Part shown: one piece after another, positions 3,127 through 33,175 of the stretch
How positions within the stretch are numbered: the first letter of the stretch is position 1
How the letters are laid out: each line of letters opens with the position of its first letter
IMG/VR virus record: IMGVR_UViG_2675903036_000001
Coordinates: 22,710 to 86,709 of that record
Direction: 5' to 3' (one strand)
DNA: 64,000 bases
Origin: a virus
Taxonomy: Duplodnaviria > Caudoviricetes
Program-made: the position numbers and the translations under genes
Notes under the pieces: model-generated
Seen by the model: the letters and a program-made list of their open reading frames with translations, nothing else
The model's database searches: none
What the model was told of the DNA's origin: nothing

Positions 3127-3564
3127 ATGGCGATTTATTCGAATGAATTTAGAAAAGAGATGGAAAAGCGATTTGCAGAAAATGCGGGCTTGTCATCTGC
3201 TAAAAAGAAAAATAATACCCTGCAAGAATTACAGGCGCTAGGAAGGTTAAAGGAGCGCCAGATGAATAAGCTGGAACTGGCGTACTCTCAGCATCTTGAA
3301 GCGCTGAAAGCATGCGGATATGTGCTTTGGCACGAATTCGAGGCGGTAAAGCTTAGGCTTGCGGACAACACGCACTACACGGTTGATTTCATGGTGATGA
3401 GAGCCAACGGCGAGCTGGAAGCTCATGAAGTAAAGGGCGGGTATGCGTTTGACGATTCGTTGGTTAAGCTGAAATGCGCGGCAGAGAAATTTCCCTGGCC
3501 ATTCTACCTGGTGAAAAAGGGCAAGGACGGTACCTGGGATATCAGCAAGGTGGAAAATAAATGA
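3127..3564 (+). CDS. DUF1064-like PD-(D/E)XK nuclease
   Basis: NKLE..Y, YTVDF, HEVKG motifs; GGAGG RBS. Confidence 0.7.
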   Translation: MAIYSNEFRKEMEKRFAENAGLSSAKKKNNTLQELQALGRLKERQMNKLELAYSQHLEALKACGYVLWHEFEAVKLRLADNTHYTVDFMVMRANGELEAHEVKGGYAFDDSLVKLKCAAEKFPWPFYLVKKGKDGTWDISKVENK

Positions 3565-5768: not shown

Positions 5769-6680
5769 ATGGTGACTGCTAAAGATATGACCGGAATGGT
5801 GTTTGGTCGCTTCACGGTAATTCGTCGTGATTCCGAAAGAAAAAGCCATTCTGGTTCAAGGTGGATATGCCGTTGTGAATGCGGCAACGAGAAATCCATA
5901 ATTCGAGGCAATCTAATCAGTGGACAAATCAAGTCATGTGGTTGCCTCCTTCTTGGCGATCCAGCTAAGGTTTGCGGGCGAACACTTGGCGTATCCATTA
6001 ATTATTTGCCAGGAGAGAGGTTTGGTCGTTTGGTCGTAATTTCTACATGCGAATCTAAAAAAGGAATGTCTCAATTCAATACGCGCTGTGATTGTGGAAA
6101 GGATGTTACGGTTACAGGTCTGTATTTAAGAAAAAGCAAGAATCCTTCGTGTGGTTGCTACGAGTATGAAAACGCTAGAAATAGGCGATTGATAAATTTA
6201 TCTGGCGAGCGATTTGGCAAACTTACTGCTGTTGAGCGATCTGGAAAAAATTCTTCAGGCCACACATTGTGGTTGTGCAAATGTGACTGTGGATGTGAAA
6301 AGAAAGTTTCTCTTTCTTCATTGCGAAGTGGGCGCACTATTTCATGCGGGTGCGCTAAATCAGATAGTGTCGTTTGGATGCCAAATAATGCACTCAGATA
6401 TTCTCGCCATCGAGGTTCTATTCGTCGTGCGCTGAGGCATGGTGCTAATGGAAAATTCACAGAGAAAGAGATTGAAGAATTAAATAAAAAACAAAAAGGT
6501 CGCTGTGCTTATTGTGGTGCAAAGTTTGGTAACTCATATGATCGCGATCACATTCAGCCTCTGAGCAAAGGTGGAAGTAACGCGATTGACAATATTCAAT
6601 TGTTATGTCGATCTTGCAATGGTCGTAAAAATGCCAAAGATCCGTTTACATGGGCTAATGAGATTGGGATGCTGTTGTAA
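5769..6680 (+). CDS. HNH endonuclease with three Cys-rich repeats
   Basis: 3x G.RFGRL.V...C.CG...SCGC; C-terminal CAYC..DHIQPLSKGGSN...NIQLLCRSCN. Confidence 0.85.
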   Translation: MVTAKDMTGMVFGRFTVIRRDSERKSHSGSRWICRCECGNEKSIIRGNLISGQIKSCGCLLLGDPAKVCGRTLGVSINYLPGERFGRLVVISTCESKKGMSQFNTRCDCGKDVTVTGLYLRKSKNPSCGCYEYENARNRRLINLSGERFGKLTAVERSGKNSSGHTLWLCKCDCGCEKKVSLSSLRSGRTISCGCAKSDSVVWMPNNALRYSRHRGSIRRALRHGANGKFTEKEIEELNKKQKGRCAYCGAKFGNSYDRDHIQPLSKGGSNAIDNIQLLCRSCNGRKNAKDPFTWANEIGMLL

Positions 6681-8203
6681 TGGTTATTCCGTTATCTATT
6701 CGGGCAGCGGCTGAGCTGGAAATTCGCCGCCGCCGCACAGAAGAACTTAAGCGGATTAATGGTGATTCGGAAACTATACGTGAGCGTTTGGGAATGCCGC
6801 AGCTTCACCCTGCTCAAATAAGAATGCTCGCAGAAAGTCGACGTTACAATGTCGCTTCGTGTGGCAGAAGGTTCGGGAAAACTTTCCTCTCTGCTGATGT
6901 GCTCCTTGATGGCCCTCGAAAAAAGGGAGCGCTTCATGGGTACCCGGTGGCGTTGTATGCCCCCACCTATCAAACCATGCTTGAATCGTGGCGGAATCTA
7001 GTTTATCTGCTGAAACCCATTACTTCCCAGAAATCAGAGCAGAATAAGCGTATTGACCTAAATACTGGTGGGTGTATTGAGTTCTGGTCATTGGACAATC
7101 CTGATGCTGGCCGGGGCAGGAAGTATGCCACGGTAGTTATCGATGAGGCCGCCATGATAAAACGACTGGAAGAATCATGGAGTCAGAACATACAGCCGCT
7201 TTTGCTTGATTACCAAGGAGAGGCATGGATTGTTAGCACTCCGAAGGGTGATAATTTCTTCAAGACTCTGTTTGATTATGGTCATGCCGCAAATCCGGCG
7301 CGAGATGACCAATGGCAATCCTGGCAGATACCGACTTGGGAAAATCCTCATATCAATCGGGAAGATATTGAAAGAATGCGCTCTAGCATGCCTCGTTTGG
7401 CGTTCATGCAGGAGATCGAGGCGCAATTCGTAACTTTCGCTGGCACGTTCATTAAGGCAGAGCATCTCCATAGCGGTCAGCCACCGGAGGGTATGACGCT
7501 GTATCAGGGAGTTGATCTTGCAATTTCAATGAAGGAAAACGCTGACTATACTGCAATTGTTACTGTTGGTGTGGATAAGAACACAGGCCGCGTGTGGATA
7601 GTAGATGCAGAACGAAGGCGAGTTGGTTTCCGGGATGCGTTGGATTTTATCCAAAGTAAAGCGGAAAGATGGCGCCCAGAATCGATTGCTATTGAAGTGG
7701 TGCAATATCAGGCTGCTGTAGTAGAGGAATTATTGCGCTCTACCGATCTTCCTGTGCGACAGGTAAGACCAGATAAAGATAAATTGACGCGTGCACAAGG
7801 CTTGATTACACGATACGAGAACGGGCTTGTCTGGCATGCAGAGACACTTCCACAAGAGTTTATCAACGAACTATTATCGTTTGGCCCGGACTGTGAGCAT
7901 GATGATATGGTCGATGCCGCTGTTTATGGATACATGATGACTGGAGACTATGGGAAAACATTATTTATTCTGCCAAAAAATCCTGAGACAGAAGTGATGC
8001 AGAAACGTCAAGCAATGGTCGAAAGGGGTATGCCTGGCTTACCTGATGGCGTGATGGGAATACTCGAAAAGCAGCCTACGGAAAGCGAGGTGTGCGGCAA
8101 TTGCACGGCGTTCAACTCTGAAACCAAGCTGTGTGAAGAGCGGCACGTGAAGGTGCGTGCACACGATCCTGGATGTTCATTATTTGTGGAGGCGGAGGGT
8201 TGA
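6680..8203 (+). CDS. terL: terminase large subunit
   Basis: Walker A GRRFGKT, Walker B VVIDEAA, STPKG, nuclease GVDLA and HDDMVDA. Confidence 0.95.
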   Translation: MVIPLSIRAAAELEIRRRRTEELKRINGDSETIRERLGMPQLHPAQIRMLAESRRYNVASCGRRFGKTFLSADVLLDGPRKKGALHGYPVALYAPTYQTMLESWRNLVYLLKPITSQKSEQNKRIDLNTGGCIEFWSLDNPDAGRGRKYATVVIDEAAMIKRLEESWSQNIQPLLLDYQGEAWIVSTPKGDNFFKTLFDYGHAANPARDDQWQSWQIPTWENPHINREDIERMRSSMPRLAFMQEIEAQFVTFAGTFIKAEHLHSGQPPEGMTLYQGVDLAISMKENADYTAIVTVGVDKNTGRVWIVDAERRRVGFRDALDFIQSKAERWRPESIAIEVVQYQAAVVEELLRSTDLPVRQVRPDKDKLTRAQGLITRYENGLVWHAETLPQEFINELLSFGPDCEHDDMVDAAVYGYMMTGDYGKTLFILPKNPETEVMQKRQAMVERGMPGLPDGVMGILEKQPTESEVCGNCTAFNSETKLCEERHVKVRAHDPGCSLFVEAEG

Positions 8204-19399: not shown

Positions 19400-22300
19400 A
19401 TGTTGATTCTTTTCCTGAAAGCAGAACAGCAATCACTGCTGTTTGACGCTCCTGTATTAGTGCAGGGGTCAGTCCGTAAAGACGGAAGTGTAGTAAAACC
19501 GCACGTGCGGATTCAAAAAAAGAAACTGCCTGATTCTGGCGGTACACAGGGGAATTTATTTGGTGATAATTCCACTGAACAATCGAAAAAACCCTCAAAG
19601 TTAGACGCATTCATTGCCAAGCAAGGCGGAATGCAGTCTCTTGCGTCCAAGCTATCAATGCTGACTGAAGGTCAGCAGCAGACCATCTTTGAAAAGATGG
19701 CGGCGCTGGATGGAAAGAACGTCAAAGAAGTAGCTGCGATGTTTGACGGCTTTTCTGTCAGTGAGATCGAACAGAAGCAGCCGGATTTGTTCACATTGCA
19801 ACATGAAGCGGTAAAGGAAGCAAACAAAGAAGAGTTTGCGGAAGAGGACAAAGCTCCACAGATTATCAATCATCTTGACCCACTTGAATTTGGCGTTAAA
19901 GCCGGTATCACCAAGTCAGAACGGCGCAAACTCAATGCACAGGCCGTAGCTATCGTCACAGACAAAACTTCATCGGATATCACTGAAGACGACCGTGCGA
20001 TCCTGCGTCAGTATTCCGGCAATGGTGGCTGTGGTGATTCGCTCAATGAATTCTATACCGATCCGGCAGTTGCGCTTGCCATGTGGAAAGTCGCGGAAAA
20101 GCTGGGTATTACTCACGGTACAGCCTTGGAGCCTTCATGTGGATCGGGCGTATTCCTGCACACTGCGCCTGCTGGATTCAAGGTTACTGGCGTTGAATTG
20201 GAAAGCATCTCTGCCAAGATGGCCGAAGCATTACATGGTGAACGGCATGAAATCGTGAATGCTTCGCTGGAGCGATTTGCTACTCAGGATACGCGACGAT
20301 TTGATATCGTAATCGGCAATCCCCCCTATGGGCCGCGCGGCATGCTTGCCAGGGATGACAAGAAAGAGCTGTCCAAAGCGGAAGAGTATTTCATTGATAC
20401 CAGTCTGGACAAGACCCGTGCAGATGGACTATGCATGCTGGTAGTGCCAAGCGGCATTATGGGTAGCAAGAATGGCCGCAAATTCAGGGAGCGCATGCTG
20501 AGAAAAGCGGAGTTCCTGGGCGCTCAGCGATTGCCTAACAGTGCATTCGAGGCAAGTCATACCGATGTGACGACCGACATTATTTACCTTCGCAAAAGGC
20601 CGGATGATATAGCAGGCGCATTATGCGTTGTGGATAAGAAAGCTCTGCAAGCGCTTGGTGTGTGGGATGATGAATTTCTGGCAGGAAAATACTTCGAAGG
20701 ACGAGGGAAAGCCAGCGTGTTTGGCGAGGTGGGCACTGCCAAGCGTGCGTTCGGTGAAATTTATACCGTAAATGGGACAATGCGCGGCGTGCCATTTTTG
20801 ATCGAGGAATTCAATCCTCATTCACAAACGGTTACGCCGTCGATTAATGACATTCTGTCGGTATTACCGGATCAAGCGGCCAAGGATAAAGCGCTCAATG
20901 CAGCTGAAAAGCAACCATATCAGAATGGCGCCAAGGTAGGTGATATCAAGGTTGAGGATGGCGTGACCTATGTGCTGCAGGGTAATCCACCACGTTGGCA
21001 TCGGGTGGATGATGCGATGCAATCCGAAGCTGTTACCCAAGCGCAAGCATTGGCATCTGAAATTGATCGTCTTATGGACGGCGAGGTGGCAGACCGGGCT
21101 GCGCTCGAGCAATCCCTCCGTGACTGGGTGGCGCGGCACGGCATACCGGCCAAGCATCCAGAGCTGTTAATCGCAGCAGCCCAGGATAAAACGCTTTATC
21201 GGTTAATCGGTGCGGTAGGCAAGGACGGCAGATTGTCCGATGCGGTGATGGGCAGAGCCGCGCGCAGAATAGAGGGTGGATTCGATGCAGTAGCACAATC
21301 ATTGGCGTTGACGCATGAGTCTGGTGATTTCTCGGTTGCTGAATTAGCCGAAGCGCTAGACAGAGATCAGGACGATATCCTGGATCAGCTGACTGCGGAT
21401 CATCGTTATGCATATGTCGATGGCGATAGATGGTCTACTATGGATACTTACCTGACAGGTCATCTATGGTCTAAACTTGATCAAGTCAAGAGCCAGCTTG
21501 CCAGCAATGAATTAGTCATGGTTATGCGTTCAAAGCTGGAAAATCAGCAAAAGAGACTTGAAGAAACCATCGATCCAAAATCACTGGAAGATGTGGAAAT
21601 TCAGTTAAACAGCGCATTCATTCCCCTAAGCATTCTGGAAGCATGGATTGACGATAAGGCTGACAGATTACGCGAGTCCAACCCCGGTTCAGGCTGGTAT
21701 CAAAACCTTAAGCAAGCTTCCATCACTTTTGAGAATGGCATTTACACCATAGGCAAAGGTACGGCGATCAATGAATCCTTGCTCGATAAATACTTGAATC
21801 GAACGGGCGTCAGAAAGGACGATTTGCCGACAATTGATGAATGGAACGAAGCATTCAAAAATTGGCTATGCGCATCAGAGTATCGAGACGCAGTAGAGGA
21901 TTTATATAACCGTAAATTCCGTGGCTTCGTGCATCGAGAATTCACCGATGAACCGATTGATGTGCCTGGATTGGCCAATCAAGACCAACTAAAACGTTAC
22001 CAATGGCCGGGGCTGAAATGGGCGTTATCGGTCGGTAAAGGGATTATTGCGGATGATGTTGGATTAGGGAAGACCGTAAAGGGCCTGTTGCTCGCACGAT
22101 TGGCCAAGCTTACCGGCAAGGCGCATAAGCCGATGATCATGGTTCCTAAGTCAGTATTAGCTAACTGGTACGTGGAGTCTCAAAAATGGTTCCCCGGTTC
22201 CAAGGTGCTTACCATAGGCGGTGATTTCTCCTATAACGACAAAGGTGAATTAGTCGGGCGTGACGATAATAAGAACGAGCGTGAACGCAAATATCATGAT

Positions 22301-25300
22301 CTGACGCAAAACGATTATGATTTCGTAATCATATCTGAGCCGGTCTTTCAGGAAATAGACCTTGATCCGGTGACGAAGAAAGAAATGTATGACACTGATT
22401 TCTGGGTGCAGCGTGGTGATTCGCTTGGCAATGCAGGGGATAAGCGCGTCAAGAAAATTCGAGAAGCCTACGAGCAGTCTATTGCAAAACGTGAATTCGA
22501 AGACAGAACGGGCGTGATCTACTTTAATGATCTTGGTGTGGACATGATCATTGCAGATGAAGCGCATCACACAAAAAACCTCTATGCCGCAAAATCGCGT
22601 TTTGGCGACAATCCCAAGTTCCTGGGTGGACAAGGACTATCAAACCGTGCGTTGGATTTCAATCTGAAAGCACGTTGGTTATTGGGACAAAACGGCGGTA
22701 AAGGCGTATATGGATTGACGGCCACACCGACCAAAAATAGCCCCCTGGAAATCTATTCGATGTTGTCGCATATCGCACCAGAAGCGTTTGAAAGCATCGG
22801 TATCCGTAACAGCGAGGAATTTCTTGATCGATTCTGCAAGTTCGAGCGTGATAACGTGCTGGGAACCAACGGCGAGATTGATGAAGCGCTGGTGGTGGCG
22901 GGTTTCAAAAACATGGAAGAACTGCGCACGCTCATGAGCCAATATGTCAGGAGGACAACCGCAGAGGATGTCGGATTGATATTGCCGAAACGCGACGACC
23001 GCATGCATCTGATCGACATGACGCCTGAACAACAGGCGGTTTATGTGGAATTGCGCGACATGGCTGCCGAAGCTGCTAAAAAGGATGCTACCGGTGATGC
23101 GCATATCTTCAGTGTCATGGACAAAATGAACAAAGCGGCGCTTGACCTGGAAATATACGATCCGGTTACCTATCAAGGTACCAGCAGTCCAAAATACGAG
23201 GCATTGTCCAAGCACGTGGCGGAGGGCGTCAAGGATGGCGGGCAGGTGATTTTTGCCGATTACGTGGATGCGCACGACAAGATTGTGAAAGCGCTCGTAA
23301 AGGCAGGCATACCCAAAAACCAGATTGGCATTATCAATGCACAGGTGGCATCCAGCGCGGTGAAACGGCAAAACATCGCCGATCAGTTCAATGCAGGCAA
23401 ATTGAAGGTGGTAATCGGCAATACTGCAACCATGGGTGAGGGAATCAATTTGCAGAAAGGCACTACTGATATTCATCACATGGATCTGCCGTGGGAACCG
23501 GCCAGCATTCAACAGCGCAACGGTCGCGGATTGCGGCAAGGCAATATTAAAGAAGCGGTGAGGATACACACCTATCTGTCGAAAGGATCATTCGATGGTT
23601 ATCGTTATCAGTCAATCGGCGCAAAAAAAGACTGGCAAGACCTGTTGTGGAAAGGCGGGGATACTATTGAAAATCTGTCCCGGGAGGGCAACATCAGCCG
23701 TGATGAAATGCTGATCATGCTGTCCGCCGATCCGGACGCGGCGCGCGCTAGATTCGATTCTGACAAGAAAGCGGCTCTAGAGCGGCATGAAGCAGGAGAG
23801 CGCGCAAAAGCTTCTGAAGAATTCGTGCGCTTCCAGTCACTGAGAGCAAGCTACCAGTCGCTCAAGGACAAGAACACCACAAGCGCGGCTTTGTTGCAAT
23901 CCAAGCTGGAGAAAGCTAAAACCGCTCTGAGAGGCAATCGCTTCTTTACGGGTAAGTCATTGATCGATTCCGCTACCGATGCGCTCATGGAGCCCAAGAC
24001 CGGCCTGGTATTGCATGCCAATGTGGCGTTTCATGCAGTAGATGAAAAAGGTGAGAACGAGGGTAAATTTGTGGTGACCGGCGTCAATCTGAAGGAAAAA
24101 ACGGTGACGGTGAGACCGTATGCGGATATCAATGGTCGCAAGAAGGCTGTCAAATTGTCAGATCTGAATCATGGTATTAAGCCTTTTGCATTCAATGAGG
24201 ATAGCGAAGCTAAAGAGCTGGCTGCGAAGATGGAATCCGATGCAGCGAATAAAGCCAACAATATTACGGATTACAAACAGTTATCGGAGTTGCCATCAAG
24301 GGTTCTGCGTGAATCGCATGACGCCATACAGCAACAGCTTAAGGAAGGGGCAAGATCATACAAGATTTCGTTCCACGCTGGTAAAGTGCCGATGGTTCAT
24401 CGTGAGAGTGGAGGGATTGATTTGGTTAATAACTACTCAATCCGTGACAAGCTGGATAGTCATGATTTCCTGCTGCCGACCGATGACGCCAGGAAGAAAC
24501 TGGCAGACGCCTGGCTGGATGAAGAGCGCAATGTCAGGTTTGGAACTACTTTTGTTAAAACAGGGAGAAGAGGTTCATCATCCTCTCAGACGCATGCTGT
24601 CAGGGAGTATCAGAATGCGGATTACAGCAGCAAACAACATAACCCTTGGTCTGAGCATGTAGCATCCGCGAATGGCGAGAAACATTCGTATTACGAGGAT
24701 GAATATGGCGCCAGTACGCCATCCATCAAGGCATTACGCGAGAGGCTGAAAAAAGAACAGATTGATCGCGCTAAGAAAGCCACTACATTAACGGATACAA
24801 TCAATATCCTTGCGCCATTGGGCGCAGTGCAAGACAAGGTGAAGGGATATGGCGCAAAAGTTAAGCTGCCCAGAAAAGCATTAGCGATCCTGTGGGCCAA
24901 GGCGAGGCATTTGGGCGTGCTGGGCGAGAAATTGGACGATCATCTGCCAGGGGAAGAAAAGAATTACGGGAAGTATGAAAAACATTCCAGTTATTTCCAT
25001 GGATCAAGAAAAGATAAAACGGTGCATGCTGCATTGATTGGCATGGCGAAAGATGCCGGATATGACGACCTCGCTGCGGCAATGATTGAGTCTGGTCTGC
25101 GTCACCATAAGAAATCTGATCACAAAGAGGTGTTGAGCGAGTTGCACCAAGACTACGGTCACAGCGATCAAGTGCTTAAAATGATGCTTAAATTAGCGGA
25201 AGCATCGGGCATTGCTGACATGAAAGCGGTTAATGCGGAAACAGGCATTCAGAATGCTGGCATACTGCGGCCTAGACAATGGGGTGGCGATGAGCATAAA

Positions 25301-25342
25301 ACGATACGAGAAATAATACAGGAGCGTATGAAGAATGGTTGA
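19400..25342 (+). CDS. DarB-like giant protein: N6-adenine methyltransferase + SNF2-type SF2 helicase
   Basis: LEPSCGSG, IGNPPY, DVGLGKT, DEAH, TATP, GEGINLQ, QRNGRGLRQG. Confidence 0.9.
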   Translation: MLILFLKAEQQSLLFDAPVLVQGSVRKDGSVVKPHVRIQKKKLPDSGGTQGNLFGDNSTEQSKKPSKLDAFIAKQGGMQSLASKLSMLTEGQQQTIFEKMAALDGKNVKEVAAMFDGFSVSEIEQKQPDLFTLQHEAVKEANKEEFAEEDKAPQIINHLDPLEFGVKAGITKSERRKLNAQAVAIVTDKTSSDITEDDRAILRQYSGNGGCGDSLNEFYTDPAVALAMWKVAEKLGITHGTALEPSCGSGVFLHTAPAGFKVTGVELESISAKMAEALHGERHEIVNASLERFATQDTRRFDIVIGNPPYGPRGMLARDDKKELSKAEEYFIDTSLDKTRADGLCMLVVPSGIMGSKNGRKFRERMLRKAEFLGAQRLPNSAFEASHTDVTTDIIYLRKRPDDIAGALCVVDKKALQALGVWDDEFLAGKYFEGRGKASVFGEVGTAKRAFGEIYTVNGTMRGVPFLIEEFNPHSQTVTPSINDILSVLPDQAAKDKALNAAEKQPYQNGAKVGDIKVEDGVTYVLQGNPPRWHRVDDAMQSEAVTQAQALASEIDRLMDGEVADRAALEQSLRDWVARHGIPAKHPELLIAAAQDKTLYRLIGAVGKDGRLSDAVMGRAARRIEGGFDAVAQSLALTHESGDFSVAELAEALDRDQDDILDQLTADHRYAYVDGDRWSTMDTYLTGHLWSKLDQVKSQLASNELVMVMRSKLENQQKRLEETIDPKSLEDVEIQLNSAFIPLSILEAWIDDKADRLRESNPGSGWYQNLKQASITFENGIYTIGKGTAINESLLDKYLNRTGVRKDDLPTIDEWNEAFKNWLCASEYRDAVEDLYNRKFRGFVHREFTDEPIDVPGLANQDQLKRYQWPGLKWALSVGKGIIADDVGLGKTVKGLLLARLAKLTGKAHKPMIMVPKSVLANWYVESQKWFPGSKVLTIGGDFSYNDKGELVGRDDNKNERERKYHDLTQNDYDFVIISEPVFQEIDLDPVTKKEMYDTDFWVQRGDSLGNAGDKRVKKIREAYEQSIAKREFEDRTGVIYFNDLGVDMIIADEAHHTKNLYAAKSRFGDNPKFLGGQGLSNRALDFNLKARWLLGQNGGKGVYGLTATPTKNSPLEIYSMLSHIAPEAFESIGIRNSEEFLDRFCKFERDNVLGTNGEIDEALVVAGFKNMEELRTLMSQYVRRTTAEDVGLILPKRDDRMHLIDMTPEQQAVYVELRDMAAEAAKKDATGDAHIFSVMDKMNKAALDLEIYDPVTYQGTSSPKYEALSKHVAEGVKDGGQVIFADYVDAHDKIVKALVKAGIPKNQIGIINAQVASSAVKRQNIADQFNAGKLKVVIGNTATMGEGINLQKGTTDIHHMDLPWEPASIQQRNGRGLRQGNIKEAVRIHTYLSKGSFDGYRYQSIGAKKDWQDLLWKGGDTIENLSREGNISRDEMLIMLSADPDAARARFDSDKKAALERHEAGERAKASEEFVRFQSLRASYQSLKDKNTTSAALLQSKLEKAKTALRGNRFFTGKSLIDSATDALMEPKTGLVLHANVAFHAVDEKGENEGKFVVTGVNLKEKTVTVRPYADINGRKKAVKLSDLNHGIKPFAFNEDSEAKELAAKMESDAANKANNITDYKQLSELPSRVLRESHDAIQQQLKEGARSYKISFHAGKVPMVHRESGGIDLVNNYSIRDKLDSHDFLLPTDDARKKLADAWLDEERNVRFGTTFVKTGRRGSSSSQTHAVREYQNADYSSKQHNPWSEHVASANGEKHSYYEDEYGASTPSIKALRERLKKEQIDRAKKATTLTDTINILAPLGAVQDKVKGYGAKVKLPRKALAILWAKARHLGVLGEKLDDHLPGEEKNYGKYEKHSSYFHGSRKDKTVHAALIGMAKDAGYDDLAAAMIESGLRHHKKSDHKEVLSELHQDYGHSDQVLKMMLKLAEASGIADMKAVNAETGIQNAGILRPRQWGGDEHKTIREIIQERMKNG

Positions 25343-25661
25343 TCCTAAGACCTTTGCGGAATCAACTCTACAATTATTGCAGCAAGACCCGAGGCGATAC
25401 CATAATTTCGGGGTGTACTGGTATTTCGTCAAGGCGCTCATGAAGCGGTATTACACCAAAGATAATCTGCATCTCCTTGGCGAGTATATGGATGCTGACA
25501 CCATGGCGAGAATGCCTGAGCACGCTACTTTGCAGGAAGCAATAGAAGCGGCTATCGAGGAATACCGGCATAATGCCAGCTTCAACCTTGGTCGCTCGAC
25601 CGTCGAGGATTTAACAGGTGGCGGTGTGCTTGACCTGCATGATGAGGATGCTGGCGTCTAA
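25335..25661 (+). CDS. hypothetical protein overlapping the end of the DarB-like gene
   Basis: 108 aa; overlap with the upstream stop. Confidence 0.65.
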   Translation: MVDPKTFAESTLQLLQQDPRRYHNFGVYWYFVKALMKRYYTKDNLHLLGEYMDADTMARMPEHATLQEAIEAAIEEYRHNASFNLGRSTVEDLTGGGVLDLHDEDAGV

Positions 25662-25701
25662 CTTTCGATAGCGAGAGATCCCTCGTCGTGTGAGCGTTCT
25701 G

Positions 25702-25716
25702 TCGTGACCGTACCAT
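25702..25716 (+). promoter_or_regulatory. putative late promoter TCGTGA-ccg-TACCAT, ATG 7 nt downstream
   Basis: repeated motif. Confidence 0.7.
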
Positions 25717-25723
25717 AGCGCGT

Positions 25724-25858
25724 ATGAGCCAGATTGTATTCATCAAAGCTTTCAGCAGCGAATGGAAGGAGGAGGATCATTCCCGTGATGGTAACGGAAA
25801 ATTTGCTGAAAAATCATCCGCCAGTACCGGGTCGAGCCTGCTCCACAACCGTGGGTAA
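25724..25858 (+). pseudogene. 44-aa leader-only stump of a cargo gene (MSQIVFIKAFSSEWKEEDHSRDGNGKFAEK...)
   Basis: hand translation, below the ORF-track cutoff; paralogous to the N-terminus of 27902..33175. Confidence 0.65.
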
Positions 25859-25972
25859 ATAGCGTTATCCATGAACTCTACAGGGAAACTCTGTTTTTGG
25901 CTGTCTGATTTTTCTGGAAGCTGAGGCGCATGGTTTCTACATTTGCATCAATTCCATTTTTTACAGCAATTT

Positions 25973-26129
25973 CACGAGCTTCCTGCTGAAGCAGGACTGC
26001 CATTAATGGGATGCGTTAGATGATCTGGCCAAGCTCTTGATCACCGGCTCAACAGAAGTAAGCGAGGCATTGACGCATATCGGCATCGCCACTCGCTACC
26101 TGAATCGCTGGATGGGAAGGAGCCGCTAA
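25973..26129 (+). pseudogene. remnant of a second antirepressor 3' end
   Basis: diverged copy of 10766-10921, near-identical over its last ~80 nt, with a 1-nt insertion. Confidence 0.85.
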
Positions 26130-26148
26130 CTCATCATTAGCTGGTAAT

Positions 26149-26178
26149 AGGGAAGGAGTGAAATTTCGCTCTTTCCCT
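26149..26178. terminator. hairpin between convergent genes
   Basis: AGGGAAGGAGTGAA-at-TTCGCTCTTTCCCT. Confidence 0.55.
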
Positions 26179-26239
26179 TCAGCTCATCAAGGACAAAGAC
26201 GCTTGATTTGTCGCGGCTATACGATTGATTGAGTTTTTA

Positions 26240-27598
26240 TCAAAGTGAAACTTTTGCTCTTTCCATAGCCTTCTCATCAAGGGAAAACAGATTTACGCGT
26301 ATCGCGCGACTGAGCGCAGCCTGATGCAATTGCTCTTCAGTTTGGCCAGATGGATTATTCGCTGTCTTCACGTTTTGATATTCAATACTGAAATCCAGGA
26401 TATTGAGTAAGGAGTTTTGATTCGTCGAAGAACCGGAATATGCAATCGTGTGCTGAAACCCGAGCTGGGCAAGGAATCTGGCAAAATTCGTGAAGTATGT
26501 GGAATAAGTGCTCAGTGCCGATGGCAATACCCAGGAGATGTGTTTTAGCTTGCTTGTGACCATATCATCGGTAGTAGTGTCGAATGTGCCTGCCAGCGAT
26601 TTCCAAGGTTGCACCTGGGTATAGGTATTCTGGGGGATACCGAATAACCCCTTGGCATTCAGCGCATTGAGAGCCGCTCCAACGGCGATTGATCCTGTGA
26701 TGGTTTCCGAGGGACTTGCAGAAGTAGGTTGAGCGATATTTTTTTCATAGATGAACGGTATTTGTTCAAGAGTAGAGCTCTGCCATGCATGAGGGACGAC
26801 ATCCAGGGTATTGTATTCACTCGTGTAGGTGAGGCTTGCGTTATTACCTTGCGGAATCGATCCGATGACGTACTCGTAGTAGGAAGCGAAATTGGTTTCT
26901 CCCGGGGTAGGGCCCGCCGTAGCCCATACGTCGATTTCTGTTACCTTGCCATTTGAGTTCCAATTCTGAAGATTTTGCATGTAGAGAGCCAGCACAGGAG
27001 AGAGCGCTCCGCCCAAGCTATGTCCTGCTACGGCAACGTTAGCTCCTGACGGGATGTTGACCGTGGTGCTCGCTAATTGACTCTGAAGGACTGTGAGCAT
27101 GGTGTTGCTGTTCGCATCCACCATACTGAGCAAGGCCGAGAGACCGTCCGCCGCGCCTTGGGAGATGGCTGCATCAGCATACTGACTTGGTAAAGTCAAT
27201 TCATTGCCGAGTATGCTTTGCCACGTTACGTTGGTGTGTACGCCGAAATCTTCCGTTAACCACCCATACACCGAATCGATGTTGGTGCCAGCTATCGCCA
27301 CGACGAATTGATTTTGAGAAGGACTGTAGAAAAGTACCATTGTGTTATCTGCGATGGCTGGGACAGCTAATGGATTGTGTGACCAGATAACTGGTCCCCA
27401 AATGACTTGCCAGTCGTTACCGATAAATCCTTGAATTGTTGTATCGTTAAGCGACGCCGTGATGACCTTTGCTACAAATCCCTGAAGATCGGTGATTGTA
27501 TTGAAGGAGGTTACTCCGAATGCTGCATTGGAGAGCAGGGAAAGACTATGGATTTGCTGCTCTATGGAATATGTTCCGGGTTGCGCTGTCTGTTCCAT
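26240..27598 (-). CDS. class 3 lipase family protein (moron)
   Basis: VVAIAGT, GHSLGG nucleophile elbow, AGPTPG, DVVP; ATG at 27598 after AAGGA. Confidence 0.85.
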   Translation of the reverse strand: MEQTAQPGTYSIEQQIHSLSLLSNAAFGVTSFNTITDLQGFVAKVITASLNDTTIQGFIGNDWQVIWGPVIWSHNPLAVPAIADNTMVLFYSPSQNQFVVAIAGTNIDSVYGWLTEDFGVHTNVTWQSILGNELTLPSQYADAAISQGAADGLSALLSMVDANSNTMLTVLQSQLASTTVNIPSGANVAVAGHSLGGALSPVLALYMQNLQNWNSNGKVTEIDVWATAGPTPGETNFASYYEYVIGSIPQGNNASLTYTSEYNTLDVVPHAWQSSTLEQIPFIYEKNIAQPTSASPSETITGSIAVGAALNALNAKGLFGIPQNTYTQVQPWKSLAGTFDTTTDDMVTSKLKHISWVLPSALSTYSTYFTNFARFLAQLGFQHTIAYSGSSTNQNSLLNILDFSIEYQNVKTANNPSGQTEEQLHQAALSRAIRVNLFSLDEKAMERAKVSL

Positions 27599-27879
27599 TT
27601 TTTGTATCCTTTTCTGGAAGGGAGTGGTGTGTAGGAGAAACAAAAGCCCTTTTACGTAAATAGCGCTTATCGCAATACAATCCGAATTTACTGGATAGGC
27701 CGTCAGACAGGGCATGAAAACAATATAGGGGAGGCAAAACAGGAGCAATAAATGAAAAAGAACCGTTTTCCCCCTGTTATTTAAGTGTTCTGATATGCCA
27801 AAAGCATGGTAAGCCAATTATTGTCGAATTGATCATGGCTAACGCAATTTTTGATTGCTCTTGTCTGGAAACACATATG

Positions 27880-27894
27880 TCGTGACCTCAAAAT
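27880..27894 (+). promoter_or_regulatory. putative late promoter TCGTGA-cct-CAAAAT, ATG 7 nt downstream
   Basis: repeated motif. Confidence 0.7.
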
Positions 27895-27901
27895 AGAGGC
27901 C

Positions 27902-30900
27902 ATGAGGCCAATCTTATTTATCAAATCAGCTCCCCTCAAATGGAATGAATCCGATCACTCGCGCAATGAAAAGGGTGAGTTTGCGCATAAACCATCCATG
28001 CATGTTGAGTCAAGCGCCGGAATCGAATCATTTGAACAGGCAAGAGCGTGGTGGCGTAAAAATCTCGGTGGAAAGGTGGCCGACCTGACGGTTCATCTTT
28101 CGCGTTCCGGCGACGGATGGAAAAAAACAATAAAGATCAAGGTTGATTTCCCGTCCAATGAAACCCACGCTTTTACTGAAAAATCAGATCCTGGCGTAAA
28201 CCCAGATTGTTACGATAATCCAAAAAAACGTTTGCATCCGAGATCATTTATTCGTGAACGCGCGATATTAATGGATCGCATTGCTAGGACAATCGAGTTT
28301 CCACAAACGAAAGCCATTCATTATGGCGCTGACCTGTTATTCGAGCGCGTTTATGGAGGCAAGCACCTTGTGGTTGCTTTGACGTGGAGTCAAGCACGCG
28401 GTTTATATGTGTTTGATTCCGCGTATGCGATGTCGGCAGACAAAGTAAAGAAAATCTTGAGCAGTCAAGACCGCACAAAAAACAACGGCCCACTTCAAAA
28501 AAGTGAGCCATTTGGATCGGCGCCTTCGGTCTTTCGGGACTCTACTGAATCCGGGAGTTACCCCACCGGCAGTAAACCTGTGGTATCAGAACCCATCGGC
28601 TTCCGTCGCTGCTGCACAGATACTATAGTTGACTTTCTAACGACGGTCAACGCCGATTTGGTGAAGTCGATTCCGGCGGGTGCGCGCTGGATCACGGTTC
28701 ACCCTAATGGCAAGGACGCAAAAGGCCAGCCATTGCTTGTTCAGGAGGAATCAGACGGTTCGATGCGCGTCATTGGTGGCGCTGGCGGCAAGCTTAATTA
28801 CCTGAAATTGCGCCATGTCCGCTCTGAGTCCGATTACAAGAAAGAGGCTGGTGAGCGCAGAAAGGCGCAAGCTGAGAAAAGAAAAGAACAGCGAAAAAAG
28901 GATAAAGAGCTTGGTATAAGCGAATCCAAGGGCCGAGCGCGAGAAGCTATTGTTGCTCAACGCAGGGGCGCGGAAAGAGAGTACATCCAGTCTGTCTCTC
29001 AAGCAATGGGCTGGGAGCAATCATCAATCGAATTCCCGGAGCATAAATACGGCCATTTGTCGGATGCCGCCGTCAACAAGCTACGCGGCAAGCACCATAG
29101 AAACTTACTGGAAAAAGCCAAGCAAGCAGTCGAGCTGCAGCGTCAAAAGTTGCTGTCGAGTGAAGAGGCGAGATTGTCTGCCGGGATAGGCGAAGTGCCT
29201 CTTGATACGCAGGATGATGATAGTCTGTCGGTTGATGATCTTAAACCCATCCCAAGTCAGAATGGAGGTCTTGGATATAGCTCTGATTATAAAGGTCGCG
29301 CTGAACGTGCCGGGCTGACTGAGGAAGACTTGAAAGCTGAGTCAAGCGCCATCCGCTCAGAAAAGCTTGCGCAAATGACTGACGCGCAACGGCAGGCGGC
29401 AATCAGGCTAGGTGAAACATCCAGGCTGCTGAAGCAGGAACTGGAAAATATCCGGGAGCCGGTTGTATCGAACGCGGTGAGTGTAATGGAAGATGCCAAA
29501 GCTGCGGTCGAATTACTCAAGGCAGAAAAGAAGCTGAAGGCCATTAACCAGCAAGCAAAAATGAAGCTGGCTGAAGTGGATGAGGCCAGTGCAAAGGTAG
29601 AGCCAAAGGCGTTTGTGCTTGAGTATGCGGCTGACCCTGATATAGAAAAGAAAATCGCGGAAGATATCGAAAACGATCTGCGCACTGCGCAAACACGCAC
29701 ATTTTTGACGGAATTTCAGCGGTTAGCCGGTGATAAGCCGGAGGAAACCGTTGGAAAATATATGGGTATCGGTGCTTATAACAGCATTAATTCCCTGGCG
29801 CTTGCTGTGGGTGGTGATGCTTTGGTAGATCGCTCAGTGGTAGATGTGCTGGGTATAGCCGGTGCAGCGCAGGTGCTGGCGAGGCGAGTCCATGCCGATC
29901 TGAAGGAGGATGTAGATCGGATTGCTGAGGGCATGCAGGAGTTTCACCTTCACCACTACATGACAACCAGCGATCAGGCACTTAATCAAGCACGTGAATT
30001 GATGGATGTGGCGCGTGAAATTGAGATAGGTGAGGGTGCAACAGGGGCTGATCTTAATACCGCACAAGAGCTCAATGCCAAGCGCCGGGCTGCGGTGACT
30101 GATGCGCAAAAGATCATCGGGCAAGCATTAGGAGAAATGGAGGCCAATGCTGCTCTGGTGATGGCGCTGAAGCAAGGCGCAAAAGATTTGGTGCAGGTAC
30201 CATTAGGCAATCTATCTGTCGAAAGTGCAATTGTGCGCGCTAGGGCAATCGGATTGCAGCGTGGGGATTATCAAATTGACGATTCTGCAGGGCAAACCTT
30301 CCTGACCGTCAATGCAAGCGGTATGGATAGATTAGCCAAGCCGGTTAATCGCGAAGATGTAGAGCAGATTAAACATAATCTCTCGATCATGCGTGGCGAT
30401 CACGATGAAGATGATTGGCTGCCGTTGGGTGTTGCCAACAGACCAGATTTGGCGATAAATGTTAATCCGGGCATTGCGCCAAGGTTAGCTGACCCATTTC
30501 AACCAAGCGAAGACCCGGAACAATCACTGCGAGATTATATCGGTGGACGCACGGCTGATGGCGATACGCCTGCCGATATCCTGGCTGACATTCAATCGCT
30601 GGATTTCTTCCGGAAAGCAGGTAGTGATGAAGCGTACAGAGCTGCGCTAGATGCTGTTGCACCATTAAAGGATCAAGATGGAAAAATACAACGAGCTGAA
30701 TCACTCTCTGACCATTTCGAGCAATATGCAGACCAATTTGTACAATCCAGATACGGTGGATCAAGATCCCCGATCAACCGTCAAAAGTTTGAAATTAACC
30801 AAAAATCAGTTGATGCACTCCATCGCGCATTGTCAGAGGCACCGGAGGGTGTGGCGGCATATAAGCAGATAGGCGAGTTGACCCATACTGATCAAAGGAC

Positions 30901-33175
30901 GCTTAGAGAGTATTTCTATCGTCATGTGGCGAAGGAAACCCCGGAATCCAGCATGTTGCGTCAAGACCTGGAGCAATTGGACAAAAACGAGCCGGAAAAA
31001 GAGTTTGTCGATATGTTTGGCGACACGGCTACTAACCCGGAATGGTCGGCTTGGCGCAATCAGCGTGATGAGCTTGCGGCGAAGGTTAATGCTGCATCTC
31101 TAACCTGGGATAAGTATATTGACACGATGCGTGGGCATGAAAAAGCCTACGAGTCCATTCAGGACATGATTCGTTCGCGCGTGTCCAAAAAGTTTGTTGA
31201 TGAGCACAATAAACTGAATCCCGATAATCCTTTGAAGATAGGCCGGTCTGTTATCCGTAATAACCTGAATCATCTGGATGCAACAGACCAGGAAACGCGG
31301 GAAGCAAGAATGGCAGAACAAAGGCAGTTGATAGACAGTCTGCGTGAGCGCTCTCAAGGCAGATATGCTGCAGGTTCTGTCTCTGACAAACTGGATGCGG
31401 TGAGAGAACGTCAGGAAGCGTTTGAACAGTCGCAAATGGATTTCTTTTCTACTGAGGAAATGCCTGCTGAGGAAGCCATTAAAGAATTAAGAAGCGATGA
31501 GCGGCATACAGTAGGGCATGAAGCAGAGCGGCAGATTGCCGGGATGATGGGTATTGTCGGCAAAAACTTTAAGCCGGGGCAACCCGTAAAACTCTGGAAT
31601 CCATCGATGAGCGGGGGCGATAATTACGCGCGTCAGCGGGCTATCAAGCTGATTCAGGCAAACAAGCGCATCGGCTTGCACCTAGGCGCGGGATCCGGAA
31701 AAACGCTTGTCGGTCTCGGCGGATTTACCCATCTTCATCAGCAAGGGCTTGTAAAAAGAGGGATTGCGGTAGTTCCAAGCATAGTCCAAGGGCAGTTTTC
31801 GGGAGAGGCCATCAGGTATCTTGAGCCGAACAAGTTTAACTGGCACATCGAGCCTGGCGCAAACCGTGCGGAGCGAATCGCGGCATATAAAAATCCTGAT
31901 AATCATCTTTGTGTTGTAACTCATCAATCGCTTCGTGACGATCTGTTATATCTGGGTTCGCAACGCGCGGGTATTCCGCCAAAAGAAATGTCTGAGCGTG
32001 TATCAGTGATGACTCACGCAGAACGCAAAGAGTGGGCGCGTGATCTGATGGAGAAAGAAGGAATCGATTTTCAGTACATGATGATCGATGAAGGTCATAA
32101 CCTTCTCGACCGTCAAGGGAAGGAAGATTCCGCCATGTCCAACGTGATCGGCTCTTTTTCTGCAAATACTCCTTACTATGTGAGCATGACCGCCGACCCG
32201 GTTCGCAATGACGCGTCGGAAATATTCTCCGCGTTGCAGAAGGTCGCACCGGAAAGATATACCGACAGAGCGGAGTTCATGCGCCGCTACGGAACAGATA
32301 CATTGGCATCAAAGGATGCATTGCGTCGAGAAATGGCAAGATACTTCTATCCTCACAAGATAGAACCAAAAGTCAATATCAAAAGCGATGTGGTGAACGT
32401 GCCGCTCAGTGAAGGCCAGAAACACGCTCTGTCTTCATTGGATAAGGATTTGGCGTCTATGCGCATTGCCAGAATGCAAGGCAAGGTGGATATTGAAGCT
32501 GCAAAACGGGTGAATCCCGCTATGTTCGATGGCGTTCCCGAAGATCGGCATGAATCGATTGCGAAGTCGTTGCAAAACGCAATTGGGATTGTCCGTGAGT
32601 CCGCTACGCAACGAATAATCAATGCTCACCCAGAATCTGCGAAACTGGACGAAGTGGCGAAACAGGTCAAAGCGAGAAGCGGGAAACCAGGAATTATTTT
32701 TTCACACAGCCTGGAAGCCGTTGAATCCATCAAGTCGCGGCTGGAAAAGGAAGGGATGCGCGTCGTTACGATATCAGGAGCAGATTCGTCTGCTGAGAAG
32801 GATCGTAAGCGCAAGATGTTCAGCCCCGATGGGGGTGAAGAACCGAAAGCCGATATTCTTGTGGCGTCAGATGCTGCAAGCACGGGGCTAAACGCGCAGC
32901 GCGGTCAGTACCTGATTCAGTACGACGTGGTGAATACTGCGATGACGCACGCTCAACGCAGAGCGCGTATACACCGGATTGGGCAGAAAAATGATATTGA
33001 ATTGATTGATTTGGTTGGAGACCATCCTTCTGAGCGCAGAGCAAGAGACCGATTGGCAAAAAAGTATCAGTTGAGGGATTTGACTACGAGCCCGCTGGAA
33101 GGACTTGATGATACCGGCCTGGCTTATTTCCTGCGCCAGCGAGAACTAACACAAAATCAAGGAGGGTTGTTTTGA
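27902..33175 (+). CDS. giant polyvalent protein: leader + putative BECR/LPD-type RNase domain + helical region + SNF2-type helicase
   Basis: GAGSGKT, IDEGH, MTADP, STGLN, QRRARIHRIGQ; the N-terminal domain call is tentative. Confidence 0.8.
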   Translation: MRPILFIKSAPLKWNESDHSRNEKGEFAHKPSMHVESSAGIESFEQARAWWRKNLGGKVADLTVHLSRSGDGWKKTIKIKVDFPSNETHAFTEKSDPGVNPDCYDNPKKRLHPRSFIRERAILMDRIARTIEFPQTKAIHYGADLLFERVYGGKHLVVALTWSQARGLYVFDSAYAMSADKVKKILSSQDRTKNNGPLQKSEPFGSAPSVFRDSTESGSYPTGSKPVVSEPIGFRRCCTDTIVDFLTTVNADLVKSIPAGARWITVHPNGKDAKGQPLLVQEESDGSMRVIGGAGGKLNYLKLRHVRSESDYKKEAGERRKAQAEKRKEQRKKDKELGISESKGRAREAIVAQRRGAEREYIQSVSQAMGWEQSSIEFPEHKYGHLSDAAVNKLRGKHHRNLLEKAKQAVELQRQKLLSSEEARLSAGIGEVPLDTQDDDSLSVDDLKPIPSQNGGLGYSSDYKGRAERAGLTEEDLKAESSAIRSEKLAQMTDAQRQAAIRLGETSRLLKQELENIREPVVSNAVSVMEDAKAAVELLKAEKKLKAINQQAKMKLAEVDEASAKVEPKAFVLEYAADPDIEKKIAEDIENDLRTAQTRTFLTEFQRLAGDKPEETVGKYMGIGAYNSINSLALAVGGDALVDRSVVDVLGIAGAAQVLARRVHADLKEDVDRIAEGMQEFHLHHYMTTSDQALNQARELMDVAREIEIGEGATGADLNTAQELNAKRRAAVTDAQKIIGQALGEMEANAALVMALKQGAKDLVQVPLGNLSVESAIVRARAIGLQRGDYQIDDSAGQTFLTVNASGMDRLAKPVNREDVEQIKHNLSIMRGDHDEDDWLPLGVANRPDLAINVNPGIAPRLADPFQPSEDPEQSLRDYIGGRTADGDTPADILADIQSLDFFRKAGSDEAYRAALDAVAPLKDQDGKIQRAESLSDHFEQYADQFVQSRYGGSRSPINRQKFEINQKSVDALHRALSEAPEGVAAYKQIGELTHTDQRTLREYFYRHVAKETPESSMLRQDLEQLDKNEPEKEFVDMFGDTATNPEWSAWRNQRDELAAKVNAASLTWDKYIDTMRGHEKAYESIQDMIRSRVSKKFVDEHNKLNPDNPLKIGRSVIRNNLNHLDATDQETREARMAEQRQLIDSLRERSQGRYAAGSVSDKLDAVRERQEAFEQSQMDFFSTEEMPAEEAIKELRSDERHTVGHEAERQIAGMMGIVGKNFKPGQPVKLWNPSMSGGDNYARQRAIKLIQANKRIGLHLGAGSGKTLVGLGGFTHLHQQGLVKRGIAVVPSIVQGQFSGEAIRYLEPNKFNWHIEPGANRAERIAAYKNPDNHLCVVTHQSLRDDLLYLGSQRAGIPPKEMSERVSVMTHAERKEWARDLMEKEGIDFQYMMIDEGHNLLDRQGKEDSAMSNVIGSFSANTPYYVSMTADPVRNDASEIFSALQKVAPERYTDRAEFMRRYGTDTLASKDALRREMARYFYPHKIEPKVNIKSDVVNVPLSEGQKHALSSLDKDLASMRIARMQGKVDIEAAKRVNPAMFDGVPEDRHESIAKSLQNAIGIVRESATQRIINAHPESAKLDEVAKQVKARSGKPGIIFSHSLEAVESIKSRLEKEGMRVVTISGADSSAEKDRKRKMFSPDGGEEPKADILVASDAASTGLNAQRGQYLIQYDVVNTAMTHAQRRARIHRIGQKNDIELIDLVGDHPSERRARDRLAKKYQLRDLTTSPLEGLDDTGLAYFLRQRELTQNQGGLF
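28474..28509 (-). terminator. intrinsic terminator on the minus strand inside the CDS
   Basis: GGCTCACTT-ttttg-AAGTGGGCC then GTTGTTTTTT; the U-G pair works only in the minus-strand RNA. Confidence 0.7.
28477..28615 (-). ncRNA. putative ~140-nt structured antisense RNA embedded in the CDS
   Basis: bounded by its own promoter and terminator; nested stems TTTACTG/CAGTAGA and CCGG/CCGG, and a GGG-GTAA-CTC GNRA hairpin. Confidence 0.6.
28622..28650 (-). promoter_or_regulatory. sigma70 promoter TTGACC-17-TATAGT (antisense, intragenic)
   Basis: 5/6 and 5/6 matches to consensus with optimal spacing. Confidence 0.7.

Follow-up and report, generated by a model that had tools for sequence, protein, structure and literature searches.

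Polyvalent proteins carrying PBECR domains resemble the protein considered here. As set out in the accessible text of their founding survey (PMC5512222), they are large multidomain proteins encoded among virion genes and presumably injected, in which modules are extensively shuffled and a predicted BECR-type RNase module has a predicted active site made up of a first-helix Arg or His and a last-strand Ser or Thr. How phages tolerate toxic polyvalent-protein domains packed in their virions is an open question; the accessible parts of the survey propose no antidote for PBECR RNases and mention no RNA partner, with 0 occurrences of the terms 'RNA gene' and 'noncoding' (PMC5512222). MuF toxins of temperate phages, as described in the accessible text of PMC5576092 and PMC11699363, are likewise head-associated proteins with swappable toxin modules that need a cognate antidote. 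Here we analyse a 64-kb stretch (64,000 nucleotides, positions 22,710 to 86,709; hereafter the window) of the 86.7-kb IMG/VR virus record IMGVR_UViG_2675903036_000001 (CheckV completeness ~95%), in which a plus-strand polyvalent protein gene encodes a PBECR-like domain and, in the linker that follows it, almost certainly contains a minus-strand gene for a conserved small RNA (sRNA).

In toxin-antitoxin systems of the ToxIN type (type III), the toxin is neutralised by RNA and not by protein. Lambda OOP RNA and convergent type I antisense RNAs have their own promoter and terminator and overlap the 3′ end of the target gene, and a type I toxin can reportedly be a nuclease, as in RalR/RalA (PMC4041452). 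This locus resembles the type III system AvcID in that its putative enzyme toxin would be neutralised by RNA, not by protein. The AvcID antitoxin, as described in PMC10511110, is one structured sRNA, ~170-300 nt long, which is produced in excess, binds the enzyme, and inhibits it.

The predicted antisense RNA gene

A reading of the window made from the sequence alone (the sequence-only reading) had placed a promoter and a strand-specific terminator on the minus strand of the polyvalent protein gene. Both are located as claimed, the plus frame is open throughout, and the linker peptide quoted in that reading is correct in the plus-frame translation. The elements of the predicted gene are listed below; the transcript and its helices follow from an RNAalifold consensus structure and pair counts.

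28622..28650, minus strand: sigma-70-type sRNA promoter, TTGACC-17-TATAGT, 10/12 consensus matches
28477..28615, minus strand: sRNA transcript of ~139 nt, ends inferred
28615-28610 with 28574-28569, minus strand: sRNA helix 1
28601-28598 with 28578-28575, minus strand: sRNA helix 2
28593-28590 with 28585-28582, minus strand: sRNA helix 3
28568-28565 with 28530-28527, minus strand: sRNA helix 4
28563-28561 with 28555-28553, minus strand: sRNA helix 5
28552-28547 with 28542-28537, minus strand: sRNA helix 6
28512-28484, minus strand: sRNA helix 7, the terminator hairpin
28477..28512, minus strand: intrinsic terminator, consisting of the hairpin 28512-28484 and a U-run at 28482-28477

The terminator hairpin has 13 pairs, five of them G-C, and is followed by GTTTTTTG; read on the plus strand, the terminator bases encode the peptide KNNGPLQKSEPF. 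Taken from this one sequence, the evidence for an RNA gene is weak and only suggestive. Between 24 and 36 kb there are 10 promoter-like sites, compared with 15.2 ± 3.6 in shuffles, and 12 terminator-like sites, compared with 10.4, while the fold of a 142-nt segment has a z-score of −1.66, at least equalled by 14 of 200 shuffles. The minus strand of the whole window holds 8 promoters with at least 10/12 matches and 2 hairpin-plus-T-run sites with at least 8 pairs, counts from which the chance of a promoter lying 100-200 nt upstream of such a terminator is estimated at ~0.03.

Comparison across related loci puts the RNA gene far beyond chance. An exhaustive profile-free search with residues 1-263 of the polyvalent protein yielded 62 representative proteins. 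The linker (KNNGPLQKSEPFGSAPSVFRDSTESGSYPTGSKPV..PIGF.RCC) is better conserved than the preceding folded domain in several of these, and it also occurs in proteins that otherwise resemble translated non-coding DNA (e.g. P0023 and P0057). The DNA of such loci was taken from IMG/VR, metagenome, and genome collections, and the ~140-nt RNA unit was found in 13 other distinct phage or metagenome-assembled genome (MAG) loci, making 14 with the window. Nine minus-strand copies were aligned with MAFFT. The structure that RNAalifold derives from them has seven helices with 40 pairs in all: helices 1-3 make up a long 5′ arm, helix 4 encloses hairpins 5 and 6, and an unpaired stretch and then the terminator follow. 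In this alignment 94.1% of cells are paired and compensatory changes are found in 13/40 pairs; none of 500 column shuffles reaches the observed value on any of five measures, and pairing falls to 30-49% when the 3′ partners are slid by 1-3 columns. A covariance model (R1) was then built and 16 sequences were aligned to it, with 93.6% of cells paired, compensatory changes in 28/40 pairs (7/13 in helix 7, the terminator), and again no match to the observed values in 500 shuffles, although this alignment leans towards structure because it was fitted to the structure model. The claim made in the sequence-only reading, a minus-strand gene in the linker-coding stretch that starts from a sigma-70-type promoter and ends at an intrinsic terminator, is supported. 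The 'GTAA tetraloop' of that reading fared worse: the hairpin is kept across the family, but the loop sequence varies and a GNRA (GUAA) tetraloop is not conserved.

Canonical pairs account for 94.1% of cells on the minus strand versus 82.4% on the plus strand, and G-U cells number 48 versus 6, which together mark the minus strand as the functional one and agree with the strand specificity claimed earlier. A promoter of the form TTGnnn-16/17-nAnnnT ends 6-7 nt ahead of a conserved GCAG start in flanks that are otherwise unalignable; a script placed it there in 13/16 sequences, and inspection by eye locates it identically in L005, L006, and L033. R1 scores 164.9 bits on the window (28471-28626), where the unit is single-copy in the 86.7-kb genome, and it matches copies that were outside model building at 34-72 bits, including a tandem copy in L016 (59 bits), L006/L007 (46 bits), and a second copy in L009 (40 bits). 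Positions 28477-28650 of the minus strand thus contain, with near certainty on this comparative evidence, the complete gene of a conserved structured RNA, its ~139-nt transcript being predicted. A look-up of sequencing runs that contain the sequence listed no RNA run.

The two tandem arrangements each lie beside decayed domain remnants, and every copy has its own promoter and terminator. In L016 the RNA genes are at 1697-1831 and 1913-2068, and in L009 at 2729-2869 and 3042-3197 (all minus strand), the L009 pair belonging to different RNA subtypes.

A search of 26000-31000 against Rfam 15 returned nothing with an E-value of 1 or lower, and one of 28440-28680 only a snoR110 fragment (E 5.5, 15.6 bits versus a gathering score of 44). 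A tblastn search of residues 1-280 against 50,697 phage records found no match, a whole-protein search for related IMG/VR loci found none, and a motif pattern scan of IMG/VR returned only contig L004, which was already in the set. A core host sRNA or an attP relic was considered and rejected, as strong R1 matches occur in just two of 64 Methylococcaceae genomes, both of them known MAGs and both on phage-like contigs; two further weak matches in these genomes score 25.1 and 19.7 bits. A small open reading frame (ORF) inside the RNA was also rejected: the window, L004, and L009 share a 12-codon frame that opens with AUG, but it has no stop in L010, is shortened in L011, and is absent in L005.

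The protein stretch read through the element was described earlier as linker-like, in agreement with AlphaFold2, which predicts residues 204-273 to be disordered, with a predicted local distance difference test score (pLDDT) below 50. Among the window, L004, and L010, third codon positions differ by 63-67% in the domain versus 26-28% in the element, so that the synonymous sites of the element are constrained. Within the window clade, where the plus frame is open, substitutions amount to 8.3, 7.8, and 22% at codon positions 1, 2, and 3, a periodicity indicating that the stretch is also under protein-coding constraint, and an A-U to G-C switch in the terminator stem falls on the third positions of a Ser (AGT/AGC) and a Pro (CCA/CCG) codon. 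In this clade the same bases would thus serve as a floppy linker on the plus strand and, as modelled, as a folded RNA on the minus strand.

Could there be no RNA gene at all, with promoter and terminator arising by chance and the conservation reflecting a functional peptide, such as a processing site, or a DNA recombination site at module borders? The unremarkable single-sequence statistics and the codon periodicity of the window clade are in line with such an account, as are mosaic breakpoints at the edges of the element (see below). A G-P-L-x-K peptide motif at the domain C-terminus in 28/62 family representatives counts against a purely RNA-level explanation as well, since a motif so widespread in the family could account for part of the terminator conservation at the protein level. 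The compensatory changes in 28/40 pairs, however, also affect helices without a conserved peptide, and the element is intact in stop-containing or non-coding contexts (a stop inside it in L012; L005, L011, and L016). Codon periodicity is absent from L005, L011, L012, and L016 (32.8, 30.9, and 36.6% at positions 1, 2, and 3), the promoter keeps a fixed distance, and G-U pairs are strand-asymmetric. The comparative data largely refute the absence of an RNA gene, which we regard as extremely improbable.

Ten of the 62 representatives end six or fewer residues past G-P-L (P0019, P0021, P0026, P0027, P0034, P0038, P0039, P0043, P0056, and P0062). Such endings lie inside the terminator hairpin and reflect either a frequent ORF stop in its loop (CAA to TAA) or assemblies that break there.

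The PBECR-like domain and its partnership with the RNA

The domain upstream of the RNA gene was delimited by AlphaFold2 and by structure and profile searches.

28031..28462, plus strand: PBECR-like (BECR-fold RNase-like) domain, residues 44-187

No Pfam or PHROG family was matched by the first ~270 residues of the polyvalent protein. Residues 1-197, modelled with a 31-sequence alignment, have a mean pLDDT of 90, with elements running from helix 44-54 through helix 179-187; an N-terminal helix-plus-sheet subdomain is followed by helix 118-132 and then by four strands. In a wide VIA-align search nearly all of the top 25 matches are BECR-fold toxins, with weak Z-scores of 4.2 to 2.7 (RelE family, colicin D tRNase, BrnT, CdiA-CT, YoeB, HigB, and ParE), and the top weak matches in BFVD are LPD3, MuF-C, and polyvalent proteins. 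Pfam PBECR2 (PF18810) is matched below threshold by four of 31 relatives, on the C-terminal half, three of the rows scoring 19.3, 14.9, and 12.7 bits versus a cut-off of 27.1. Foldseek against PDB returned nothing at E up to 0.001, and the one row from a profile search of PDB sequences was at chance level (E 0.42). The resemblance to BECR/LPD-type nucleases proposed from the sequence alone is therefore echoed in these weak VIA-align and BFVD matches and in sub-threshold PBECR2 scores, but not in any Foldseek match to PDB or any Pfam match above the cut-off.

Residues R114 and R120 are invariant and H89, T92, and S173 near-invariant, with R120 in helix 118-132 and S173 in the last strand. Section 19 of PMC5512222, in its accessible text, describes a PBECR family with 'arginine instead of histidine', the Arg lying in a helix and a Ser/Thr in strand 4, and we infer that R120 and S173 are equivalent to these published sites. 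We therefore call the domain PBECR-like, as distinct from a demonstrated family member.

One representative, P0052 (1397 aa), has three tandem domain copies, each followed by a similar linker (..P.RL.KS.G...F..LRD..). Read from the protein only, it would carry three embedded antisense units in one ORF.

If the RNA belongs with this domain, loci retrieved through the domain should carry it too. A domain-only alignment (A5) fetched eight IMG/VR loci, of which six were searched with R1, L037 and L038 being left out as they looked like duplicates of L036. All six have a minus-strand R1 match at the domain 3′ end (23.6-63.3 bits); homologous domains lacking a downstream antisense promoter and terminator, which would have spoken against the sequence-only reading, were not encountered among these six. 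The six amount to four new distinct loci, because L036 is in the known L006 family and the scores of L033 and L034 are identical.

Across the 14 distinct loci, a full domain lies directly upstream of the RNA in nine, a remnant in three (L005, L009, and L015), and none in two (L011 and L016). In six of the nine full-domain loci the ORF stays open across the entire RNA gene and for 119 or more codons beyond it; in the other three (L012, L039, and L040) it stops inside the terminator hairpin, leaving most of the RNA in the 3′ untranslated region. Overlap between the RNA gene and the final codons of the domain ORF is seen in 12 of 14 loci, L005 and L040 being the exceptions. The element occurs without an upstream domain ORF in L005 and L011, contains a stop codon in L012/L017, and in L009, L015, and L016 comes after domain remnants that are truncated or riddled with stops. 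In the five loci where the domain is broken, truncated, or gone (L005, L009, L011, L015, and L016), the RNA still scores 127-177 bits and keeps its promoter and terminator, and no intact domain with a decayed RNA was found among R1-type cassettes. This asymmetric pattern of decay resembles that of a toxin-antitoxin pair. The partnership also holds across domain subfamilies that are just 30-40% identical, and these comparisons lead us to consider, with high confidence, that the RNA gene is linked to the domain.

An in-frame cassette in a mosaic head-morphogenesis region

Set against its helicase counterparts in Bordetella phage PHB04 and Morganella phage Mecenats66, the polyvalent protein gene divides as follows.

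27902..33175, plus strand: polyvalent protein ORF, 1757 aa from ATG 27902, from the ORF list and translation
27902..27928, plus strand: leader MRPILFIKS, left insertion border, common to the helicases of cassette-less relatives
27929..28661, plus strand: in-frame cassette of the domain and the RNA gene, ~245 codons long, missing from both PHB04 and Mecenats66
28662..33175, plus strand: conserved helicase core, starting IPAGARWITVHPNG, common to PHB04 and Mecenats66

The PHB04 helicase begins MKPILFLKASKIPAGARWITVHPNG, that is, MKPILFLKASK-IPAGARWITVHPNG, and that of Mecenats66 begins MKRLMIKASIPAGAKWITVHPNG, that is, MKRLMIKAS-IPAGAKWITVHPNG, while the window protein has MRPILFIKS, then ~245 residues, then DLVKS-IPAGARWITVHPNG. 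Since both relatives join the leader directly to the core, the domain and RNA gene constitute an in-frame insertion after codon 9. DNA similarity to the two phages begins at 28667-28670, and their helicase genes start 24-33 nt earlier. The two K-S motifs that had been noticed bracketing the linker stretch are real (MRPILFIKS... and ...DLVKS) and correspond to the insertion borders relative to these phages. The idea that a nuclease-like domain and its RNA form an in-frame cassette likewise holds, with PHB04 and Mecenats66 lacking both and the domain-fetched loci carrying both.

Contigs from metagenome runs, compared over 25300-29500, show this region to be mosaic. One joins 25661 to 28677 and so apparently omits the lipase gene and the cassette, its shorter side being just 28 letters; another lacks the lipase gene and retains the domain, RNA, and helicase. 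The homology of one contig breaks exactly at 28616, at the RNA 5′ end. A block at 26013-28230, made up of the lipase gene together with the opening 330 nt of the polyvalent gene, is found again at ~98% identity in contigs of three metagenome runs, where it passes into other sequence on either side.

A hydrophobic motif, (I/L/V)LF(F/L/I)K(S/A), forms the N-terminus of nearly every ORF that opens with the domain and recurs just past the RNA or linker, at the start of the next module. It is seen at 27902-27928 and 28647-28661, in P0004, P0007, P0008, P0022, and P0031, and in L006 and L011, and could mark module junctions, mediate in-frame recombination, or act as a targeting signal at the N-terminus.

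The frame of the polyvalent gene is open from TTG 27851, giving 1774 aa, and encodes an N-terminal PBECR-like module, the linker, and a DarB-type SNF2 helicase core. The phrog_62 'DNA helicase' profile matches residues 273-1753 (E 3.6e-250), and Pfam SNF2-rel_dom, ResIII, and Helicase_C match within residues 1262-1711. The gene is flanked by portal and minor head protein genes on one side and by prohead protease and major head protein genes on the other, so that the 1774-aa ORF has the attributes of a polyvalent protein: large, multidomain, with conflict-type domains, and encoded among virion genes. The neighbouring features of this head-morphogenesis module, in which the RNA gene sits, are listed here.

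Head-morphogenesis module: HNH endonuclease, large terminase, Ant-like protein, portal, and minor head protein
19400-25342: 1980-aa methylase/SNF2 protein, with a DarB-like PHROG match
Between the 1980-aa methylase/SNF2 gene and the Lipase_3 gene: 108-aa ORF
26240-27817, minus strand: Lipase_3 (PF01764) gene, 525 aa, between the 108-aa ORF and the polyvalent gene

At the position of the Lipase_3 gene PHB04 has only a 284-nt gap. The HNH endonuclease ORF (5769-6680) abuts the large terminase ORF (6680-8203) directly upstream, and the terminase match begins only at position 262 of the phrog_2 profile; this arrangement could be a packaging pair, or a split or invaded terminase gene. ARAGORN found no tRNA or tmRNA in the window. 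Outside the window, the same record encodes a tyrosine integrase (PF00589, 63 bits, in a 397-aa open frame, at G000:C1:5198-5710), and judging from this gene content the phage is probably temperate.

A possible antitoxin role and relation to known systems

We tentatively consider the RNA to be an antitoxin-like neutraliser of the RNase-like module, a reading that we hold as plausible but well short of established. On this view the RNA's own promoter would drive constitutive expression, in the lysogen as well as in the producing cell, and the RNA would keep the RNase module harmless until the protein is packaged and injected. Most likely the RNA would bind to the RNA-binding domain and inhibit it or serve as its decoy, in the manner of type III antitoxins such as AvcI, and a cell with an orphan RNA copy could be shielded from the same RNase when related phages inject it. 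A lysogen in which the sigma-70 promoter fires while late genes are silent, the setting assumed in the sequence-only reading, is plausible because the record encodes a tyrosine integrase. Three considerations lead us to favour the antidote role: the partnership holds across such divergent domain subfamilies; the RNA is intact in five domain-decayed loci, with no reverse case among R1-type cassettes; and a virion-packaged RNase must be harmless in the producing cell, a BECR domain binds RNA, and protein-level inhibition of an enzyme toxin by a single sRNA has a precedent in AvcI. The RNA-antitoxin idea as first proposed thus keeps a real sRNA gene, a BECR-like domain (with weak scores), and a cassette, but the locus departs from the classical definition of a type III system.

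Several observations weigh against this reading, together with the family-wide peptide motif noted above. The RNase activity and toxicity of the domain are suggested weakly, by Z-scores of at most 4.2 and Pfam scores below the cut-off (19.3 versus 27.1), and the domain of the window itself has no Pfam match at E up to 1. A blastn search of the RNA against the same 50,697 phage records found no match, so that the family is small and rare. A divergent domain copy in L015 (1551-2519), fused to a ...ERWITVHPNG helicase, has no R1 match, the best score being −1.4 bits. Its homologous linker (2075-2215, minus strand) shows by eye a 15-bp hairpin with a U-run and TTGAAT-17-CATACT, with a single-sequence fold z-score of −1.73 equalled or bettered by 11 of 200 shuffles; it may hold a diverged sister RNA family, as a candidate only. 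Finally, linkage alone would fit a cis-antisense role or the co-inheritance of neighbours equally well.

The first of these alternatives casts the RNA as a pure cis-antisense regulator of the type I or lambda OOP kind, acting only by pairing with the complementary sense mRNA. RNase III cleavage or a ribosome block at the domain-helicase junction would then silence or uncouple the polyvalent gene in lysogens or early in infection. Complementarity is given by construction, the RNA has its own promoter and terminator, and in L039, L040, and L012 the domain is C-terminal and RNA and mRNA overlap convergently at their 3′ ends, which is the classical layout of 3′-overlapping type I systems and of OOP/cII. 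Such a regulator is hard to reconcile with an RNA that stays intact in five loci with a broken or missing domain ORF, two of which (L011 and L016) have no recognisable sense gene. The conserved junction and internal-loop nucleotides and the three-way architecture also exceed what a kissing hairpin needs, and the putative toxin is a soluble domain of ~190 aa, not a small membrane peptide. We judge a purely cis-acting role to be rather unlikely.

Also unlikely, in our estimate, is an independent trans-acting sRNA, a 'moron' that would regulate host or phage mRNAs or decoy a host defence or RNA-binding protein, and that would lie beside the domain only through inheritance and recombination as neighbours. 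The RNA is an autonomous transcription unit, stands alone near unrelated morphogenesis genes in either orientation (L011 and L005), and is present in tandem copies in L016 and L009. It also has a conserved unpaired AAGG... stretch ahead of the terminator, a feature that resembles many Hfq-type sRNAs. Against this, its placement beside the domain is strikingly uniform, with the terminator lying over the last domain codons in 12/14 loci, across subfamilies only 30-40% identical, and the presence in only 2/64 Methylococcaceae genomes, on phage-like contigs in both, speaks against a core host sRNA. Pairing in trans with the start region of the cognate ORF was tried and rejected, as RNAduplex energies were no better than background: for 11 candidate starts in six loci, a fraction of 0.32-0.96 of background windows was at least as good, in a crude comparison that ignores accessibility.

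Returning to the antitoxin-like reading, a bolder generalisation, which we consider doubtful, is that polyvalent effectors carry RNA immunity inside their own coding sequence. Every PBECR-like module would come with an antisense, sigma-70-driven gene for a structured sRNA as its translated linker, the RNA binding and inactivating the RNase in the lysogen or producer, with orphan copies giving immunity against competitors and the whole being shuffled as a cassette at (I/L)LF(F/L)K(S/A). Because both would occupy one ORF, toxin and antidote would be shuffled between polyvalent proteins as a single cassette. If true, a conserved antisense RNA partner within the same ORF would supply the antidote for PBECR RNases. 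The locus would, moreover, give a clear natural example of simultaneous selection on the same DNA for a protein linker and for a folded RNA on the opposite strand, with compensatory stem changes placed on synonymous third positions. More generally, RNA genes that gene callers and Rfam overlook can lie concealed in the 'linker' or low-complexity parts of giant phage proteins, and the locus offers a compact, testable toxin-plus-RNA pair along with a covariance model for finding further members.

In the accessible portions of the open full-text literature, PMC5512222, and a 2026 BECR classification preprint, a scope that leaves aside subscription journals, no RNA partner of PBECR or polyvalent proteins was found. 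Compared with PBECR domains, the window domain scores below every Pfam PBECR threshold and has an extra N-terminal beta subdomain and a conserved H-A-F-T motif. The antidote of MuF toxins is, in the accessible accounts, a protein encoded downstream (PMC5576092, PMC11699363), whereas this locus shows no evident gene for an immunity protein and has an RNA as conserved partner. Unlike type III systems, the RNA is single, without tandem repeats, and convergent, lying downstream of or inside the toxin ORF instead of upstream on the same strand, and the putative toxin is one module within a virion protein of 1774 aa. As in type I systems, the antisense RNA is complementary to the putative toxin mRNA, and it is wholly inside the ORF in six intact-domain loci; in place of a small hydrophobic toxin peptide, however, the sense product is a soluble alpha/beta domain of ~190 aa in a 1774-aa protein. 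A conserved multi-helix fold, survival without the sense gene, and the possibility of full embedding in a translated linker further set the RNA apart from type I antisense RNAs and OOP. Antisense and antitoxin-like sRNAs are thus known already, and what we rate as new here is the RNA family and its embedded, dual-coding, in-frame cassette layout.

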